From: Candidatus Magasanikiibacteriota bacterium
Lineage (GTDB): Bacteria > Patescibacteriota > Patescibacteriia > Magasanikbacterales > UBA922
Length of the DNA stretch: 41,994 bases
Assembly: GCA_035438805.1 (NCBI GenBank)
Contig: DAORJA010000002.1
Coordinates: 1 to 41,994, forward strand
Direction: 5' to 3'
This document shows, piece by piece, positions 5,945 through 31,650 of this stretch (position 1 is the first letter of the stretch; each line of letters starts with the position of its first letter). A program made the translations under genes and the position numbers. The notes beneath the pieces were generated by a model, which worked only from the letters and a program-made list of their open reading frames with translations, made no database searches and was not told the origin of the DNA.

Positions 5945-6538
5945 TCAGGAACGAGCATAGCGGCTGAGCTGATGTTCCATGTTTTGCCGGGCATGGAAGA
6001 GTCGGCTCATTACCGTTCCAATCGGACACCCAAGTGTGAGAGCGATTTCTTCGTAAGTCATGCCATGGAGTTCTCGCATCTCGAACACCATTCGGTGTTT
6101 AGGAGACAGGGTCTTCAGTGCGGCTGCCATGTGAGTGTTACGTTCGTGGTGCAAGGTCACCTCCTCCGGAGAGGGAATGTCTGCATGCATACGAATGTAA
6201 CCTTTCGCTTCAACATGTGCCGCAGAGTCCACGTACTCGGTCAATGCCGCTCGCTTCTCCTTGCGAATGAGGTCGATACACGTGTTCTTCGTGAGCATCC
6301 ATAGCCAGGTGGAAAACTTCGATTTTTCATCAAACGTTTCCAGGTGGGTGAGAACTTTCACGAAGACATCATGCACGATGTCTTTTACTGTTTCGAGATT
6401 GCGAATCATGGGATACGCAATCTTCAAGACCAGTCCGCGGTATCTCTGGTAGAGCTCTCGGAACGCTCGGCGGTCGCCCTCTTTGCAGAGTTTGATGAGG
6501 TCTCTTTCGTCAGTTGTCGTAGGCTTGTCTTTTTTCAA
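5945..6538 (-). CDS. ECF-type sigma-70 family RNA polymerase sigma factor (GC-rich, orphan)
   Basis: Region 2 (FRELYQRYRGLVLKIAYPMIRNLETVKDIVHDVFVKV...FSTWLWMLTKNTCIDLIRK) and region 4 (LSPKHRMVFEMRELHGMTYEEIALTLGCPIGTVMSRLFHAR). A TTG at 6538 is preceded by GGAGG (6545-6549) at a 6-nt spacing. The longer track start at 6619 lies inside the predicted -35 box. Confidence 0.8.
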   Translation of the reverse strand: MKKDKPTTTDERDLIKLCKEGDRRAFRELYQRYRGLVLKIAYPMIRNLETVKDIVHDVFVKVLTHLETFDEKSKFSTWLWMLTKNTCIDLIRKEKRAALTEYVDSAAHVEAKGYIRMHADIPSPEEVTLHHERNTHMAAALKTLSPKHRMVFEMRELHGMTYEEIALTLGCPIGTVMSRLFHARQNMEHQLSRYARS

Positions 6539-6590
6539 GGTGCACCTCCGTAATGTCGCTCTAGCTCCCTCAATAGGCACATTGTATCTA

Positions 6591-6619
6591 AACATAGCAA
6601 TAGTACAAAAAATCGTCAA
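6591..6619 (-). promoter_or_regulatory. sigma-70-type promoter for the GC-rich sigma gene
   Basis: Minus strand: TTGACG (6619-6614), 17 nt, TATGTT (6596-6591). Confidence 0.45.
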
Positions 6620-7168: not shown

Positions 7169-7723
7169 ATGGATCCACTCCGAACGGATGAGGAACTGGC
7201 ATTGGATGTACAGCAAGGAAATAGCGAAGCCTTTAGCATGTTATTCAATCGGTATGAACAAAAAATGCTTCGATATGGCAAGCGGTTTTTGTATACCTAT
7301 GAAGATTTGGAAGACGCAGTTCAGGAAGTGTTTATTAAAGCATATAAAAATGTTCAAAGTTTTAATACGACTAAAAAATTTTCGACCTGGCTCTACCGTA
7401 TTGCGCACAATACATTTATCAATGTAATCAAAAAGAATGGGAGAGAACCTGTATCATTTTTCGACTTTGATACCTTGGTGAAAATTCCATCCAAAACTAC
7501 AGACACTCTTGAAGATGATTTTTTGAAAGCACAGGATTCTGAGTCATTAGCTGGTATAATGAAAAAGCTTTCTCCGAAATATCGTGAAGCATTGGTACTA
7601 TTTTATTTTGAAGAATTGGAGTATAAAGAAATAGCAGAGGTCCTGAAAATACCAACTTCTACAGTAGGAGTCAGAATCACAAGAGGCAGAGCAATGCTCA
7701 AAAAAATGATTTCTAATACATAA
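7169..7723 (+). CDS. ECF-type sigma-70 family sigma factor
   Basis: Region 2 (AFSMLFNRYEQKMLRYGKRFL...DAVQEVFIKAYKN...FSTWLYRIAHNTFINVIKK) and region 4 (LSPKYREALVLFYFEELEYKEIAEVLKIPTSTVGVRITRGR). Confidence 0.85.
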   Translation: MDPLRTDEELALDVQQGNSEAFSMLFNRYEQKMLRYGKRFLYTYEDLEDAVQEVFIKAYKNVQSFNTTKKFSTWLYRIAHNTFINVIKKNGREPVSFFDFDTLVKIPSKTTDTLEDDFLKAQDSESLAGIMKKLSPKYREALVLFYFEELEYKEIAEVLKIPTSTVGVRITRGRAMLKKMISNT

Positions 7724-9877: not shown

Positions 9878-10246
9878 TTAGGCGACTGCCAAGTCTTGGC
9901 CATAGCCCGCATCGTGCGCCACCTCTCCCGGTCTGGGTTTGGGAAGCGTGTACGTCATCATAGCAGTCTTTTTCGTGAAGTCGAACTTCTCGATCCAGAC
10001 CGACGGACGTTCGTCATCCATGCGGTAGTAACCTTCGATCTTCAGATGATCCTTCGATTTGGCGATCAGGCCGAGACTCCAGATGCGACAGGAGTGCTGG
10101 ACCAGTTCACCAGATTTCGAGTCTCTTCCGTAGAAGGTCACTTCACTGTCACTGAAGAAGTCGCGAGAAGTCGCGAACTTCATGATCAGGTCAGCGTAGC
10201 TCGGATTTTTGTCACCCTCGATCAGCATCGTAAACACTTGGGCCAT
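9878..10246 (-). CDS. hypothetical protein, GC-rich island B
   Basis: 122-aa ORF with ATG start. SD AAGGAGAGAG lies at 10254-10263 (minus strand). About 50% GC by hand count. A long hairpin (9807-9858) lies downstream. No motif recognised. Confidence 0.6.
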   Translation of the reverse strand: MAQVFTMLIEGDKNPSYADLIMKFATSRDFFSDSEVTFYGRDSKSGELVQHSCRIWSLGLIAKSKDHLKIEGYYRMDDERPSVWIEKFDFTKKTAMMTYTLPKPRPGEVAHDAGYGQDLAVA

Positions 10247-10433: not shown

Positions 10434-11000
10434 ATGCCTTTAGGTTTTTTTGAGGACAAAATGGTGCAGGCCCAACAAGGGGACCGTAATGCTTTTGGTG
10501 AAGTCTATGATGAGTTTGTAAAAAAACTCTACGATTATGCTTTTTTTCGCGTAAAGGATAAACAAACAGCAGAAGATATCGTAGCGGACACATTTATAAA
10601 AGCGCTTGAACATATAAGCTCATTTGACCCGAACAAAGGCTCCGCTGCATCATGGCTTTATCGAATAGCAAGAAATACCTTGGTTGATCAATATAGATCA
10701 CATAAAAAAACTACAGCATTTCCTGAAGATTTTGATGTTGCAGACACTGCAGATTTAAAAACCCACATAGAAAATAGAGATATGCTGAGGAACGTAGAAA
10801 CTGCATTGGAGAAATTATCAGAGCGTGAACGTGAAATTATTATACTTCGAGTATGGGATGAACTTTCATACAAAGAGATTTCAGAAGTATTGGGAAAAAG
10901 TGAAGCAAGTTTGAAAATGGCTGCATCACGGGCATTGAAAGCATTGCGTACACAATTGCCTGTCGCACTCTACATTGCTCTGTTACTCCAGATGAAGTAG
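10434..11000 (+). CDS. ECF-type sigma-70 family sigma factor
   Basis: NAFGEVYDEFVKKLYDYAFFRV...DIVADTFIKALEH...AASWLYRIARNTLVDQYR, and LSEREREIIILRVWDELSYKEISEVLGKSEASLKMAASRALKAL. Confidence 0.85.
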   Translation: MPLGFFEDKMVQAQQGDRNAFGEVYDEFVKKLYDYAFFRVKDKQTAEDIVADTFIKALEHISSFDPNKGSAASWLYRIARNTLVDQYRSHKKTTAFPEDFDVADTADLKTHIENRDMLRNVETALEKLSEREREIIILRVWDELSYKEISEVLGKSEASLKMAASRALKALRTQLPVALYIALLLQMK

Positions 11001-20353: not shown

Positions 20354-20929
20354 TTGTATATACCTAACATAGTGATTACAATTCCCACGTTAAACGAATG
20401 GAAAGAGGTCAGAGCTCTAAGGCTTCAAGCTCTCAAAAATGAACCTCATGCATTTAAGAATGGTTATCACGAAGAAATACAATTGACTGAGAATGAATGG
20501 AAAAAGAAAATTTATAATTCATCCCGAAATAATCGGGATGAATTTTTTATTATAGCAAAAGTAGATAATCGAATTGTAGGAATGGTGGGTGCTGACTTGA
20601 GAGACGAGAAGACATGGTGTCTTAAATCAGTGTTTGTTGCATACGAGTATAGGGGACAGGGGATTGGAACACGACTTCTTGAGGAAGTAATAGAAAAGCT
20701 TGAAAGAAATTATCATGCACGCATGATCGAGCTCACGGTAAACATACTGCAAATAGCGGCAATTCGAGTGTATACTAAGTGTGGATTTGTGGTGAGGGAG
20801 ATTATGGAAAATCAAGAATCAGGCGATGGAAAAAAATATACTAAGTTTAATATGTATCGGAATTTTTGTCCGATTACCATGCAGGGACATGTAAATGATT
20901 TTGAAAAAACATTGCTTATCCACAGATAA
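20354..20929 (+). CDS. GNAT family N-acetyltransferase
   Basis: Acetyl-CoA motif A VAYEYRGQGIGTRLLEEV. TTG start in the track, so the exact start is uncertain. Confidence 0.75.
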   Translation: MYIPNIVITIPTLNEWKEVRALRLQALKNEPHAFKNGYHEEIQLTENEWKKKIYNSSRNNRDEFFIIAKVDNRIVGMVGADLRDEKTWCLKSVFVAYEYRGQGIGTRLLEEVIEKLERNYHARMIELTVNILQIAAIRVYTKCGFVVREIMENQESGDGKKYTKFNMYRNFCPITMQGHVNDFEKTLLIHR

Positions 20930-20941
20930 TATATAATTTAT

Positions 20942-20969
20942 TTGACGTGAAATCCTGCCATGGTATATT
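20942..20969 (+). promoter_or_regulatory. sigma-70-type promoter with extended -10, upstream of the GC-rich non-coding island
   Basis: TTGACG (20942-20947), 16 nt, then TGgTATATT (-10 at 20964-20969). Confidence 0.4.
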
Positions 20970-21052
20970 AAACATAGATTAAAATACAAAACAGTTTCAC
21001 CCCAGCATCTATTCTGTAGAACTTGTAGTATAGATGGTGCTGTGAATGTTTA

Positions 21053-21400
21053 GGGGGCAAAACAATCGCTCGCACCGACATGTGCCATTTCCCGTTCCCG
21101 TTTCCTTTTCGCTCCTTCCGTGCCCCTGGCTATCTTTCCCTCAACCTGGCCTGTTGTAGGCCCTCAACTGTTGCGACTCTCGTCGTCTTAGTCCTTCGAG
21201 GCCCTTCTGGCCTCGCTCTGAGAAACGCACCGCCTATCGTGCACAAAAGCGGTGTGAGCGCAGTCAGTTCACGTAGTCGAGAGACAAGAAGAAAAGGGGT
21301 CCATGACCCCATCCTAGCCAGCAGACCTTCGGGTCGACCAAGTTCCTTCGTCCCATGAGGGGCGGCAATCACACGTACCAACGTGTGTGCGCCGCCCCTC
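21053..21400 (+). ncRNA. candidate structured non-coding RNA of unknown class (strand tentative)
   Basis: About 57% GC in an AT-rich genome. Only mutually antisense, RBS-less ORFs are present. Local hairpins: GGCCT/AGGCC 21148-21162, GAGGCC/GGCCTC 21198-21214, CACCGC/GCGGTG 21228-21254, GGGGTC/GACCCC 21296-21310, GACC-UUCG-GGUC 21324-21335 and a 44-nt terminal hairpin at 21357-21400. Plus strand is favoured only by the upstream promoter. Confidence 0.4.
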
Positions 21401-21443
21401 CGTACACCTTTGTTTTCTTAATTGTTAAGGAGGCAAAAGCAAC

Positions 21444-21476
21444 ACAAAATAACCGACTATAAATCGGTTATTTTGT
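21444..21476. terminator. bidirectional Rho-independent terminator
   Basis: ACAAAATAACCGA-ctataaa-TCGGTTATTTTGT, immediately after the stop of the minus-strand membrane gene. Confidence 0.65.
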
Positions 21477-21483
21477 TTGTAGG

Positions 21484-22719
21484 TTAGTGGGTATGTGAAT
21501 GATGATGTACTTCTTTAAGAGAATTTTCAGGTTTGATTTTACTATAATATTTTGCAGCAATGAGTGTGGTGAATGGAACTGCAATAATCAAGGTGATACT
21601 TCCGATAATCATTCGTATGACTTCTTCCATAATAATCTCGCTATTTAGCGTTACCCAGGCTGGTCGCTCATAAATTTTGAAGAGTAGAATAAGTGGAAGA
21701 GATGCTCCGGTGTATGCAAGGACGAGCGTATTTACGAGAGATAAAATATGTTCACGACCGACTAATGATGCGCGGCCATACAATTCTCGCGCAGATAATT
21801 CAGGATTAGCATAATAAATTTGTTCAACAACAGCTGCTTGTGCTGTAGTAATATCATCAAGTATTCCCAAGACTCCAATGATAATACCGCCGAGCAATAA
21901 TCCGCGAAGATTGATCATGACACCTGGAGCAAACTGGAGATAAAAGGCTTCTTCACTACCCATGCCAAATAGATGGGTAAATATTACAAAAAAATACGAG
22001 AGTACAAGGGCTACACTAATAGAGATAATAGTTCCGACAAGCGCGATTGAGGTGCGCGCATGAAATCCATGCGCGATGTACAGTGAAGTGGCTGCAATAA
22101 TACTGGTACCAATTAGGCTCACCAGCAAGGGATTTGCCCCATGTATGATCTGGGGAACAATGTACCATGCAATGACTCCAAAGCTCACGAGAAGGCCTGC
22201 AAATGCTCTAAATCCATGAAATTTGGTAAGTATGAGGGTAATGAGCACAAATATAGACAAAACGATCCATAGAGCATCCAGGCGGTACATATCGCTAATA
22301 TAGTACTGGGTCTCTCCAGCAATAACGCTTTTTCCGACTACCAATGAATCTCCAATTTTTAATTGCCTATTTTCTCGATCTTTAAGAACTTCATTGGTGA
22401 CCATGACTATACTACCATCTTCAAATCCGGAAGTGATTAATACTTCTATTTCTTGGATCAATATTTTCTCTCCTTCACCGTAACCCTCAGCTTCTCTTTC
22501 ACTAATAATGTGATTAACTTTTCCTCGGTAGAAAACATCGCTTACTTCTGTAGGTTCTTCAGGGTTTGTGTTAGTAGTTTCAGGGAATGTAAACGAGGGG
22601 TCATTTTGAATTGATTCACTCACCGATCCAGCCATGGGCTCTGCCGAAGCGACATAGGGAAATGTGAAAGTATTCAAAAAAAAGATAAATAGAAAAAAAG
22701 GAAATAAAATTTTTTTCAT
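21484..22719 (-). CDS. YibE/F-like integral membrane protein
   Basis: Signal/anchor, about 130-aa extracytoplasmic domain, then about 7 TM helices with LGILDDITTAQAAVVEQI. Ends in an HHHSHTH tail. Family call is from memory. Confidence 0.6.
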   Translation of the reverse strand: MKKILFPFFLFIFFLNTFTFPYVASAEPMAGSVSESIQNDPSFTFPETTNTNPEEPTEVSDVFYRGKVNHIISEREAEGYGEGEKILIQEIEVLITSGFEDGSIVMVTNEVLKDRENRQLKIGDSLVVGKSVIAGETQYYISDMYRLDALWIVLSIFVLITLILTKFHGFRAFAGLLVSFGVIAWYIVPQIIHGANPLLVSLIGTSIIAATSLYIAHGFHARTSIALVGTIISISVALVLSYFFVIFTHLFGMGSEEAFYLQFAPGVMINLRGLLLGGIIIGVLGILDDITTAQAAVVEQIYYANPELSARELYGRASLVGREHILSLVNTLVLAYTGASLPLILLFKIYERPAWVTLNSEIIMEEVIRMIIGSITLIIAVPFTTLIAAKYYSKIKPENSLKEVHHHSHTH

Positions 22720-22767
22720 AATTGATTATACGTTTATCACTATAGTGTATTACAAATTCAAAAAAAA

Positions 22768-22794
22768 GAAAACCGATTTTTAGTCGGTTTTCTT
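22768..22794 (-). terminator. Rho-independent terminator
   Basis: AAGAAAACCGA-tttttag-TCGGTTTTCTT. A T-run follows on the minus strand. Confidence 0.65.
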
Positions 22795-23880: not shown

Positions 23881-24369
23881 TTAGGTGGGATGGTCGTACG
23901 GCAGCGGCGACGCGGCGATTTGCTGCGCGAGCATGGCCGTCTGGATGATCTTTTCCGGATCATCCGGATACATGCGCACGAGCGCGTCGCACATGGCCAA
24001 CCCCTGCATGACCGAACGAATGTCCCCCTCGATGAAAATACCATCGACACAATCCACGTGTCCATGATCCGAAGTGCACATCATGAAGTTGTAGAATTGA
24101 GTGGAACCTGACGGCGGTATGTAGGAGCTGACCTGCTTGCGAACCGCATCGGTATCCTCGGGAAGTCCCTTCTCGCTTGCTTCGATCAGTGCCCCCTCAA
24201 TTTGAGAGAAGGTGACCAGACCCTGACTGAAGTTGCGATTGAACTCCCTCTTGAGATCCATCTTCTCCACGATGAACCAAAATTGCTGCCCAGGCACTGC
24301 CAGGCAGACATGGACGAGCTTAAGCTCCTTCCAGAGCGGGTGCTCGACTTCGTGATTGAAAAGACTCAT
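23881..24369 (-). CDS. hypothetical protein, GC-rich island D
   Basis: 162-aa ORF with ATG start. SD GAGGAGGA lies at 24377-24384 (minus strand), 7 nt from the ATG. Contains CTSDHGHVDC (possible metal site). No family recognised. Confidence 0.6.
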   Translation of the reverse strand: MSLFNHEVEHPLWKELKLVHVCLAVPGQQFWFIVEKMDLKREFNRNFSQGLVTFSQIEGALIEASEKGLPEDTDAVRKQVSSYIPPSGSTQFYNFMMCTSDHGHVDCVDGIFIEGDIRSVMQGLAMCDALVRMYPDDPEKIIQTAMLAQQIAASPLPYDHPT

Positions 24370-24575: not shown

Positions 24576-24610
24576 TTAACAAAAATCTCCGCTTGGATAA
24601 GCGAAGATTT
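24576..24610 (-). terminator. Rho-independent terminator of tRNA-Asn
   Basis: Minus-strand RNA forms AAAUCUUCGCUU-aucc-AAGCGGAGAUUU (12 bp including one G.U) followed by UUUUUG. On the plus strand the same pair is a C.A mismatch. Confidence 0.7.
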
Positions 24611-24616
24611 TAGGTG

Positions 24617-24986
24617 CTCGGCGGGCGGGGCTCGAACCCGCGACCCACTGGTTACAGTATCCTCTCTCTTTCAAGAGAGACTGGACTATGTCATCACCCA
24701 TGCCATACCTGGCAGAATAAATTCTCCAAGAGCCTGGGGGTGCGGAGCGCTTCCCGCCCCGACGATGTCGGGGAAGTACTCCCATAAAGGGATAGTCTCT
24801 GAACCTTCCTAATCCATTACTAATTCCAGTAAAACTGGAGTATCGGACTAGGCTTGGCTGCAGGTTACCCTATGAAAAAATCCATAGTAGCGGTTTCCTG
24901 CAATTCACTCCGTTGGCATCCTGACATTACTATCAGGAGCTGCTAATTTTTAACAGCCAGTTGCTCTACCGCTGAGCTACCGCCGA
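24617..24986 (-). tRNA. tRNA-Asn(GTT) interrupted by a group I intron (exon 1 24986-24953, exon 2 24654-24617)
   Basis: The joined exons give TCGGCGG-TA-GCTC-AGCGGTA-GAGC-A-ACTGG-CTGTTAA-CCAGT-GGGTC-GCGGG-TTCGAGC-CCCGC-CCGCCGA-G. This is a 72-nt cloverleaf with all stems Watson-Crick. CCA is not encoded. Confidence 0.9.
24655..24952 (-). ncRNA. group I self-splicing intron (IC3-like), 298 nt, no ORF
   Basis: P1 pairs exon GCUGU with intron GCAGC, with a U.G pair at the 5' splice site. The intron ends in G. P7 halves are GACUAU and AUAGUC. Core tracts CCUGCAGCCAAGCC and GGAAGGUUCAGAGACUAUCCC resemble the Azoarcus and cyanobacterial tRNA introns. A P9-like UCUCUCU-UGAA-AGAGAGA hairpin is present. 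Confidence 0.8.
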
Positions 24987-25007
24987 ATATATGCGTAAAC
25001 CTGCTAC

Positions 25008-30834: not shown

Positions 30835-30945
30835 ATGCTGAAGATGATTCTCGAGTTCATTCAATTTCTGGACGACCTGATCCTTCGCTGGTGGCTCAGA
30901 AGCGGCAGCTCAAAGCTCCTCGCGACCAGTTACACCGACGCCTGA
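30835..30945 (+). CDS. candidate 36-aa peptide, GC-rich island E
   Basis: AAGGAG (30823-30828) lies 6 nt before the ATG. Encodes MLKMILEFIQFLDDLILRWWLRSGSSKLLATSYTDA. A terminator hairpin follows immediately. Confidence 0.35.
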   Translation: MLKMILEFIQFLDDLILRWWLRSGSSKLLATSYTDA

Positions 30946-30946
30946 A

Positions 30947-30978
30947 CCCTCGTACACAATACGGGGGCTTAATTTTTT
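30947..30978 (+). terminator. Rho-independent terminator
   Basis: CCCTCGTA-cacaa-TACGGGGG followed by CTTAATTTTTT. Confidence 0.55.
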
Positions 30979-31098
30979 AGACACATCCGTTGCATATTAC
31001 AGTTGACAGAATTACATAAAAAAATTAGGCTAGCATTAGCGCCTTGTGTCATAGTGATCAATGGTCGCTGGTACACAGTTAGCCAAAGGAAAAAGGAA

Positions 31099-31650
31099 AT
31101 GCAACGCATCTTCGCCGCATTCCACTTCGTCATGGTGTTAGTGCTCAGTCAGTTTTCCGTCTCCTGCGACGGTAATCTCTCGGACACCTGCGCCATCTCC
31201 AATCCCTGCACATCGGTCATCGACTACGATCAATCCTCGATCGAGAAGATGCTGCACGATGTTCGGGCCGACTACGTCGACCCGAGCTTCACGAGCAGTA
31301 ACTACCCGTTCAAGAGTCACGGAACTATCACCAAAGATCTGGTATTCGTGGAAGTCGAAGTCTCGATGTCCACCGAAGAATTAATCGCGGAGATAGCCGA
31401 ACGCAGTCTCGAACTCGCGAACCTCGAGGACATGCTCGCGTTTGGGGCGCAATACCCGCCAGGAATGGTCTGGGAGCGTCCTATCGTCGTCTTCGGCTCA
31501 GATCGCGAAGACTCACCGGGTGTATGGGTCTCACCCTGCCTAGATGTGATCGAGCGAGATAGCCGGAATGCGTTCACCGCAGTGATACCGGTCTACTCAA
31601 ACGAACCTTCGTGGCAGACCGACACACGCATTCTAGCAGTAAGACCATAA
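31099..31650 (+). CDS. hypothetical lipoprotein, GC-rich island E
   Basis: ATG at 31099 is preceded by AAAGGAAAAAGGAA. Signal plus lipobox MQRIFAAFHFVMVLVLSQFSVSC. 183 aa. The track's TTG start at 31003 lies in AT-rich promoter-like sequence. Confidence 0.6.
   Translation: MQRIFAAFHFVMVLVLSQFSVSCDGNLSDTCAISNPCTSVIDYDQSSIEKMLHDVRADYVDPSFTSSNYPFKSHGTITKDLVFVEVEVSMSTEELIAEIAERSLELANLEDMLAFGAQYPPGMVWERPIVVFGSDREDSPGVWVSPCLDVIERDSRNAFTAVIPVYSNEPSWQTDTRILAVRP

Follow-up and report, generated by a model that had tools for sequence, protein, structure and literature searches.

A putative large structured non-coding RNA between convergent GNAT and YibE/F genes in a Candidatus Magasanikbacteria contig

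Results

The island and its signals

We analysed a 41,994-nt stretch of DNA (contig DAORJA010000002.1, hereafter the window) from Candidatus Magasanikbacteria (candidate phyla radiation, CPR; Patescibacteria). It contains a GC-rich island that lies between a gene for a GNAT acetyltransferase and a convergent gene for a YibE/F membrane protein (Table 1); the local gene order is aldehyde dehydrogenase, transketolase, GNAT and convergent YibE/F, and the YibE/F protein assigns the stretch to Candidatus Magasanikbacteria. On balance, we take plus-strand positions ~20976–21479 of the island to be an independently transcribed gene for a highly structured non-coding RNA (ncRNA) of ~505 nt, accessory and trans-acting, of an undescribed family that we call family A.

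The GC content was 55–62% in 100-nt windows from 21050 to 21399 and mostly 34–45% across the rest of the 42 kb. The only long open reading frames (ORFs) of the island were one of 92 aa on the plus strand and one of 83 aa on the minus strand, mutually antisense. A first-pass annotation of the same DNA had proposed the GC excess, the convergent GNAT (plus) and YibE/F (minus) flanks, these two ORFs and an extended −10 promoter reading into the island on the plus strand, and all four were confirmed; its background of 38% GC was slightly low, and ~40% is closer.

The promoter scan returned TTGACG-16-TATATT with 10/12 matches plus an extended −10 TG, which gives a predicted transcription start at ~20975–20977. 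The arrangement TTGAC-N14-TGnTATAnT was kept on the window plus strand in all five copies of the element (see below), while the 14-base spacer varied in sequence. Such conservation of the −35, TG and −10 elements around a variable spacer is what a working promoter would show, and it is the main evidence for the strand; G-U versus A-C counts and folding energy did not discriminate between strands. A conserved promoter was not found on the minus strand, which would be entered only through the YibE/F terminator. At the other end, the 13-pair hairpin of an intrinsic terminator was 98.5% paired across homologues. Both the promoter elements and the terminator were kept in 5/5 copies, in keeping with the generic description of an independent ncRNA gene. 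Another terminator, between a 216-aa gene and YibE/F (22759–22794, minus strand), has the same core AACCGACUAAAAAUCGGUU as that of the island; given this recurrence, the core is probably typical of the genome.

Homologues, selection and coding tests

Four further independent loci had a homologous element at this site (nhmmer, E-values 1e-54 to 1e-173; Table 1), and when 10 close YibE/F relatives were looked up, two of them added homologues (L090/L091 and L092). The RNA was 89% identical between L090 and L092, where four-fold sites of YibE/F and transketolase were 47–49% identical. The corresponding values were 82% and 59% for L004 and L011, and 60% and 42–43% for the window and L092. Since the identity of the RNA exceeded that of four-fold sites in each comparison, the data indicate purifying selection on the element and not the decay of a pseudogene.

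Several results indicate that the element is non-coding, with no conserved reading frame. Mismatches showed no preference for a codon phase (37/29/28 and 34/27/34), close relatives were separated by indels of 1 and 2 nt, frameshifts made the ORFs of L090 and L092 change frame part-way, and the window ORFs were unrelated to those of L004. Protein searches were made with the two long window ORFs and the L090 gene call. Neither the 92-aa nor the 83-aa ORF matched Pfam. The 83-aa ORF had no homologue among billions of predicted proteins, the 92-aa ORF matched only two proteins, one repetitive and the other of similar low complexity, neither a true homologue, and the L090 gene call (146 aa, of which a 115-aa part was queried) matched only itself.

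Predicted structure and covariation

The plus strand from 20977 to 21480 folded with a minimum free energy (MFE) of −176.6 kcal/mol, compared to −134.6 ± 6.0 kcal/mol for dinucleotide shuffles (z = −6.99, with 0/100 shuffles as good), and the minus strand also folded well (z = −5.69). Among the homologues, L004 and L090 gave z-scores of −10.1 and −10.65. RNAalifold, applied to a MAFFT alignment, returned 89 consensus pairs, with 90% of cells paired compared to 83.3% in shuffles. Twenty-one of the 89 pairs had changed on both sides, whereas shuffles gave 10.9 ± 2.2 (0/500 reached this number) and slid controls gave 0–7. Base pairing therefore seems to have been kept through compensatory changes, a result that is supportive rather than conclusive because only five sequences, from three sub-clades, were aligned and the same alignment yielded the structure.

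Independent folds of the five RNAs, together with the RNAalifold consensus, suggest a common layout (Table 1): a 5′ hairpin (P1), a helix (P2), a variable multi-hairpin centre with a long-range closing helix, and an almost invariant 3′ module. P1 corresponds to RNAalifold columns 42–61/70–89, with 18 pairs, of which four were compensatory, and 86.7% of cells paired. P2 encloses the C/U-rich tract UUUCCCGUUCCCGUUUCCUUUUCGCUCCUUCC, and helices equivalent to it were formed by GGAGCGAG/CUUGCUCC in L004 and L011 and by GGGGCG/CGCUCC in L090 and L092. The closing helix recurred at the same position with different sequences in the independent folds (GACUUCGCUUC/GAAGCAGUC in L004 and CUUGCUUCG/CAAGCAAG in L090). 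That P2 and the closing helix are equivalent across clades is inferred from the separate folds only, because MAFFT leaves those strands unaligned.

The central domain holds three or four hairpins across the homologues and carries many indels between clades. The hairpins listed in the first-pass annotation were all present in the sequence at the motifs it named. Its long-range pair CUGGCUA/UAGCCAG was recovered in the MFE fold, although the 3′ strand had been placed one base off. The GC hairpin at 21296–21310 and the extended hairpin at 21198–21214 are insertions relative to the other clades, so that the hairpin density of the window copy appears to be partly a lineage-specific expansion of a tolerant centre. 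Several short GC hairpins, including the UUCG and GGGGUC/GACCCC hairpins, are restricted to the window lineage and are absent or different in the homologues.

The 3′ module runs in the order AGUUCUUUCGUCCCAU, hairpin A, CCGUACA, hairpin B (a duplex resembling Shine-Dalgarno and anti-Shine-Dalgarno sequences) and terminator, and is nearly invariant. The conserved segment at 21340–21356 takes part in helix 7 (RNAalifold columns 335–340 with 396–401), which had six pairs with one-sided changes only. The outer stem of hairpin A had nine pairs, 100% paired in 5/5 sequences, with one compensatory change from A-U to G-C, while its inner stem varied. Hairpin B had 10 pairs with 95.9% of cells paired and two compensatory pairs, and in L004 its stem was fully rewritten as UUCUCAUCUCCU/AGGAGAUGAAAA.

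Table 1. Island, flanking genes, predicted parts of the RNA, and related elements at other loci (positions without a locus prefix are those of the window)
Feature	Position	Strand	Details
GNAT acetyltransferase gene	20354–20929	+	Pfam match; flanks island
Sigma-70-type promoter (predicted)	20942–20969	+	−35 TTGACG 20942–20947; TG 20961–20962; −10 TATATT 20964–20969
P1, 5′ hairpin	20994–21046	+	GUUUCACC ... GGUGAA; base conserved, middle variable
P2 helix	21053–21126	+	GGGGGC 21053–21058 pairs with UGCCCC 21121–21126; window MFE fold
Central multi-hairpin domain	21126–21321	+	Variable; closing helix CUGGCUA 21126–21132 / UAGCCAG 21315–21321; MFE and centroid folds
Inner hairpin GGCCUGUUGUAGGCC	21148–21162	+	Sequence
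Inner hairpin GAGGCC..GGCCUC	21198–21214	+	Sequence
Inner hairpin CACCGC..GCGGUG	21228–21254	+	Sequence
Inner hairpin GGGGUC..GACCCC	21296–21310	+	Sequence
Small hairpin GACC-UUCG-GGUC	21324–21335	+	Hairpin here in all homologues; stem and loop sequences differ
Conserved segment AAGUUCCUUCGUCCCAU	21340–21356	+	Nearly invariant in five homologues; partly paired in consensus
Hairpin A, 44 nt	21357–21400	+	GAGGGGCGGC ... GCCGCCCCUC; arms also given as GGGGCGAC/GUCGCCCC
Linker CGUACA	21401–21406	+	Invariant; CGCCCCUCCGUACA identical in all five homologues
Hairpin B	21407–21439	+	Pyrimidine arm CCUUUGUUUUCUUAA / purine, Shine-Dalgarno-like, AAGGAG-containing arm UUAAGGAGGCAAAAG
Intrinsic terminator (terminator scan)	21446–21479 (scan: 21444–21476)	+	AAAAUAACCGA-CUAUAAA-UCGGUUAUUUU and U-rich tail; bidirectional, also ends YibE/F
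YibE/F membrane protein gene	21484–22719	−	Pfam match; flanks island, convergent to GNAT
Homologue L004	1550–2080		GNAT/YibE-F site; nhmmer
Homologue L011	8554–9080		GNAT/YibE-F site; nhmmer
Homologue L090	5690–6260		GNAT/YibE-F site; identical to L091; nhmmer
Homologue L092	5243–5810		GNAT/YibE-F site; nhmmer
Family B RNA (putative)	L090:5235–5700	−	Directly behind element A; promoter-to-terminator unit
Family B RNA (putative)	L096:5760–6470	−	Longer version, next to DUF559 endonuclease gene

Search for known RNA families

A cmscan of the whole window against Rfam at gathering thresholds gave nothing in the island and only a group I intron at 24662–24962; in the related loci, no family matched the island, and the above-threshold matches were group I introns elsewhere. 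ARAGORN reported no tRNA or tmRNA. The first-pass annotation could not match the island to RNase P, tmRNA, SRP/4.5S, 6S, group I/II introns or common riboswitches, and these scans agree with it. A permissive cmscan of the island (E ≤ 10) yielded only a below-threshold match to RF01820 (RsaE/RoxS) and chance-level matches to terminator-like small RNAs.

Two classes of candidate were rejected. A housekeeping RNA (RNase P, tmRNA, SRP or 6S) had no match in Rfam or ARAGORN, and many of the close relatives do without the element. A transposon-associated guide RNA (HEARO/IscB omega RNA or TnpB reRNA) or a group I/II intron had no Rfam match in the island at E ≤ 10. The nuclease, reverse transcriptase and transposase of such systems were not seen among the window ORFs scanned, which were those of 100 aa or more within the first 37 kb. 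Literature searches for structured RNAs of the CPR returned nothing relevant.

Distribution of the element

The element was absent from several loci in which YibE/F was 60–80% identical to that of the window; the gap between GNAT and YibE/F was only 17–70 nt in L089, L093, L094, L097/L098, L120 and L121/L122. L089, the closest relative by YibE/F (80% identity), is among them. Absence from so many close relatives points to an accessory gene. Compared to L089, the window carries a clean extra segment of ~535 bp that begins within the −35 box and stops where the terminator ends, with TATTTG / TTATTTTG at its borders. This difference would fit loss through microhomology at least as well as insertion. 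The divergence of the RNA parallels that of the host genes, which favours vertical descent with repeated loss.

The element was present in a single copy per locus and nowhere else in 384 kb of related DNA. A scan of 241 million metagenomic contigs with GGGGCG-N15-45-CGCCCCTCCGTACA, a pattern present in each of the five copies, gave 21 matches, all on high-GC contigs and unrelated by nhmmer. Scans of viral contigs with three patterns gave chance matches or none, and blastn against phage and plasmid collections gave no match. Family A has thus far been seen only in one clade of Candidatus Magasanikbacteria and is rare in current data.

Other cargo of the spacer and a second RNA family

The spacer between GNAT and YibE/F held other GC-rich cargo in relatives. 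A second putative RNA, here called family B, was found in L090 and L096 (Table 1), with a promoter of the form TTGACA-N14-TGgTAnAAn, a GC-rich, structured body and its own terminator; it had no match in Rfam, and it is not a published family. The two copies were 67% identical, compared to 32% at four-fold sites, and that of L096 had ~290 extra nt in or after hairpin B. The last ~100 nt of family B matched the family A profile (E = 1.2e-5). The shared module consists of a GC hairpin ending in CCCCUC, the linker (C/G)(G/A)(U/A)ACAC, a CUUU(G/C)NUUUUCU / AGGAGANAAGAG hairpin, which is hairpin B, and a terminator. Families A and B are thus alike in promoter type, genomic slot, GC-rich structured body and homologous 3′ module, but the body of family B has no detectable sequence similarity to that of family A, and family B is absent from the window.

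The same spacer carried a GC-rich gene for an 81-aa basic protein in L002 (11300–11560, minus strand), with a promoter-like site and its own ribosome-binding site, and a gene for a DUF559 (Vsr-like) endonuclease between GC-rich hairpins in L096 (5343–5765, plus strand). These arrangements suggest a hot spot for insertions in the spacer. An 8-bp palindrome, TTAGCTAA, flanked element A on both sides in L090 (5701–5708 and 6237–6244) and followed its terminator in L004 (1563–1570); it was absent from the window copy, and elsewhere in the related DNA it occurred ~1 time per 48 kb. Possible readings are a site of recombination or targeting, or a leftover of the ancestral spacer.

Discussion

A proposed family A gene in the window

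The central proposal of the first-pass annotation, a non-coding candidate structured RNA on the plus strand, was upheld: no Rfam family was found at threshold, the ORFs queried had no protein homologues, and the plus-strand promoter was conserved. Homologues were also found, and their changes were compensatory rather than codon-like (five sequences). Under the interpretation that we favour, element A would have been inherited vertically at the GNAT/YibE-F spacer and repeatedly lost. The RNA would be transcribed as ~505 nt and would act in trans, either in regulation or by binding protein. Its invariant 3′ module would serve as the functional handle and its GC-rich centre as a scaffold that tolerates hairpin insertions. 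The 3′ module is proposed as the handle because two families with unrelated bodies share it, and because hairpin B resembles a Shine-Dalgarno/anti-Shine-Dalgarno duplex, with CCUCC preceding it. The CCUCC, pyrimidine-arm and AAGGAG elements might then contact ribosome-binding sites or a protein that recognises such a duplex, although an interaction of the 3′ module with either is weakly supported.

Several observations weigh against a trans-acting plus-strand RNA. The choice of strand rests on the promoter, and the opposite strand folds about as well; the RNAalifold consensus energies of the two strands (−73.9 and −64.3) are separated by a modest gap. The covariation statistics are weak, for the reasons given above. 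The distribution is very narrow, and the metagenome pattern scan gave chance matches only. The predicted folds leave the C/U-rich and CCCC motifs mostly paired. The complement of the conserved segment 21340–21356 occurs nowhere else in the window, and no complementary target was seen in the 42 kb, for which the start regions of translation were compared by a rough duplex scan. Among the window ORFs scanned, none near the island was a gene for a partner protein, and no known motif was found.

The first-pass annotation had also called the plus-strand C/U-rich tract anti-Shine-Dalgarno-like. This part did not hold: in every homologue the tract is largely paired with the G-rich strand of P2, which leaves no obvious free seed.

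A broader view, which we offer as speculation and consider unlikely, is that families A and B, and possibly more, are CPR-specific modular large RNAs. The handle in this case would comprise the GC hairpin, the ACAC linker, the hairpin that mimics a Shine-Dalgarno/anti-Shine-Dalgarno duplex and the terminator. It would recruit the ribosome, the translation-initiation machinery or a dedicated RNA-binding protein; interchangeable GC-rich bodies would give specificity, and the cassettes would be exchanged at the hot spot between the convergent genes.

Alternative explanations

The alternative that survives best, though we think it improbable, has the island arrive as cargo: a cassette (mobile or integrative) or a module for defence or addiction would target the GNAT/YibE-F spacer, and the RNA would serve that element and not the regulation of the host. 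Such an origin would account for the patchy presence (absence from L089 despite 80% YibE/F identity, and from L093, L094, L097, L098, L120 and L121), the other GC-rich cargo in the same spacer (the 81-aa ORF of L002, family B in L090 and L096, and DUF559 in L096), the clean indel of ~535 bp relative to L089, the TTAGCTAA copies on both sides of element A in L090, and a GC content far above that of the host genome. However, the window ORFs scanned include no transposase, integrase, reverse transcriptase or IscB/TnpB-type nuclease, and there is one copy per locus, with none elsewhere in the related DNA. The −35 box spans the left junction, which fits a microhomology deletion better than an insertion, and the flanking repeats are inconsistent across loci. 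The divergence of the RNA tracks that of the host genes, as vertical descent would have it, and the phage and plasmid collections gave no match.

It is less probable still that the island is a cis element, either a long structured 3′ untranslated region of GNAT or an insulator or bidirectional terminator between the convergent genes, without a function in trans. There is no terminator between the GNAT stop (20929) and the island, so that read-through from GNAT would include it; the island holds the sole hairpin terminator of the spacer, the empty site of L089 has none, and all five copies lie directly downstream of GNAT. Yet a dedicated, near-consensus promoter is kept in all copies, and ~400 nt of selected, covarying structure far exceed what a terminator needs. 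Most relatives keep GNAT and YibE/F without the element, and family B in L090 follows family A and not GNAT.

We give very little credence to gene decay as an explanation, in which the island would be what is left of a GC-rich protein gene gained by horizontal transfer. The genome does have GC-rich coding islets with good ribosome-binding sites (9878–10246, 23881–24369 and 31100–31650), and L002 has a GC-rich ORF at the same site. But conservation is far above that of neutral sites, codon periodicity is lacking, frameshifting indels separate close relatives, and the promoter and hairpins are conserved. Two low-complexity artefacts aside, no protein homologue turned up for the two long window ORFs or for the L090 gene call. 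The results on selection, codon phase and protein searches largely refute this explanation.

It is equally doubtful that 21357–21478 is a divergent C-rich regulatory small RNA of the RsaE/RoxS family. RsaE is a stand-alone RNA of ~100 nt in Bacillota. The RF01820 match covered the full-length model in the window (34.3 bits, E = 7.7e-4, cmscan), and the 3′ 120 nt of the island share an RsaE-like layout in which a C-rich linker (CCCCUCC..CCUUUGUU) joins a hairpin to a terminator. The score, however, is under half of the 79-bit gathering cut-off, and the match was not reproduced in the L090 homologue at E ≤ 5. Every CCCC occurrence is predicted to be paired in the MFE fold of every homologue, and the run sits in the stem of hairpin A and not in a loop. 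Moreover, RsaE belongs to another phylum, and the segment here would be the tail of a much longer, 500-nt CPR RNA.

Least credible is a CsrB/RsmZ-like sponge on the minus strand that would titrate CsrA through GGA motifs, a reading raised by the first-pass annotation, which had likened the motifs to CsrB/Rsm sponge RNAs: the minus strand folds well (z = −5.7) and has 12 GGA motifs in the window, but the numbers observed and expected from composition in the five homologues (12/10.7, 9/8.7, 7/7.8, 7/8.0 and 9/7.8) are alike, so the reading fails; only 0–3 motifs are unpaired, the CsrB/Rsm family was not found in Rfam even at E ≤ 10, and the conserved promoter sits on the opposite strand. CsrA was not seen among the window ORFs scanned, those of 100 aa or more within the first 37 kb.

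Comparison with large bacterial RNAs

At ~0.5 kb, an RNA of family A would be large for a bacterial ncRNA, and such RNAs have often proved to be ribozymes or ribonucleoprotein scaffolds. The orphan large structured ncRNAs raiA, OLE, ROOL and GOLLD came from Breaker/Weinberg-type searches of GC-rich intergenic regions in AT-rich genomes. The island resembles them as a GC-rich, non-coding tract of several hundred nt in a genome of lower GC content, with a covariation-supported multi-helix junction and its own promoter and terminator. In contrast, it does not match any of them in Rfam 15, its distribution of five loci in one CPR clade is far narrower, and its centre is poorly conserved, with only the ends invariant in sequence. 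RNAIII of Staphylococcus aureus is a ~500-nt multi-hairpin regulatory RNA with a dedicated promoter and hairpin modules between long-range helices. The predicted RNA is comparable in size, hairpin layout and dedicated promoter, and its pyrimidine-rich elements could pair with ribosome-binding sites; the analogy is one of form only. Unlike RNAIII, it has no sequence or Rfam similarity, embedded peptide gene or link to a quorum-sensing locus, and its C-rich motifs are not in hairpin loops.

CPR bacteria have tiny genomes, and to our knowledge hardly any regulatory RNA is known in them from experiments. A genuine new family of large structured ncRNAs in this lineage would be of note for its size, the selection acting on it and its modular tie to family B. 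Its dispensability among close relatives and the module shared at a hot spot would provide a testable handle on accessory RNA functions in uncultured hosts. The narrow phylogenetic range and the small alignment limit this significance.

Other features of the window

Within the GNAT frame, a perfect 12-bp hairpin with a T-run (20516–20544, plus strand) was terminator-like on both strands, and the peptide that it encodes, NSSRNNRDEFFIIA, was kept in relatives, in which GNAT gene calls range from 103 to 191 aa.

A tRNA gene at 24590–25000 (minus strand) is split by the group I intron mentioned above (RF00028, 85.7 bits, 24962–24662) and was missed by ARAGORN. Its exons give the anticodon loop CU-GUU-AA, which identifies it as a tRNA-Asn(GUU). 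The intron is inserted after U35, has a U-G pair at its 5′ splice site and ends in G; it was also found in L002, L011, L090, L092 and L095.

Further GC-rich islets at 9878–10246 (minus), 23881–24369 (minus), 30836–30946 (plus) and 31100–31650 (plus) were coding-like with good ribosome-binding sites. Pfam matched none of those scanned, and the islets are probably small genes gained by horizontal transfer. One of them lies just downstream of the intron-containing tRNA, and the pair at 30836–31650 is followed by hairpin terminators. Three genes for sigma factors of the extracytoplasmic function type lie within 5 kb (5945–6619, minus; 7169–7723, plus; 10434–11000, plus), a notable number for a small CPR genome.

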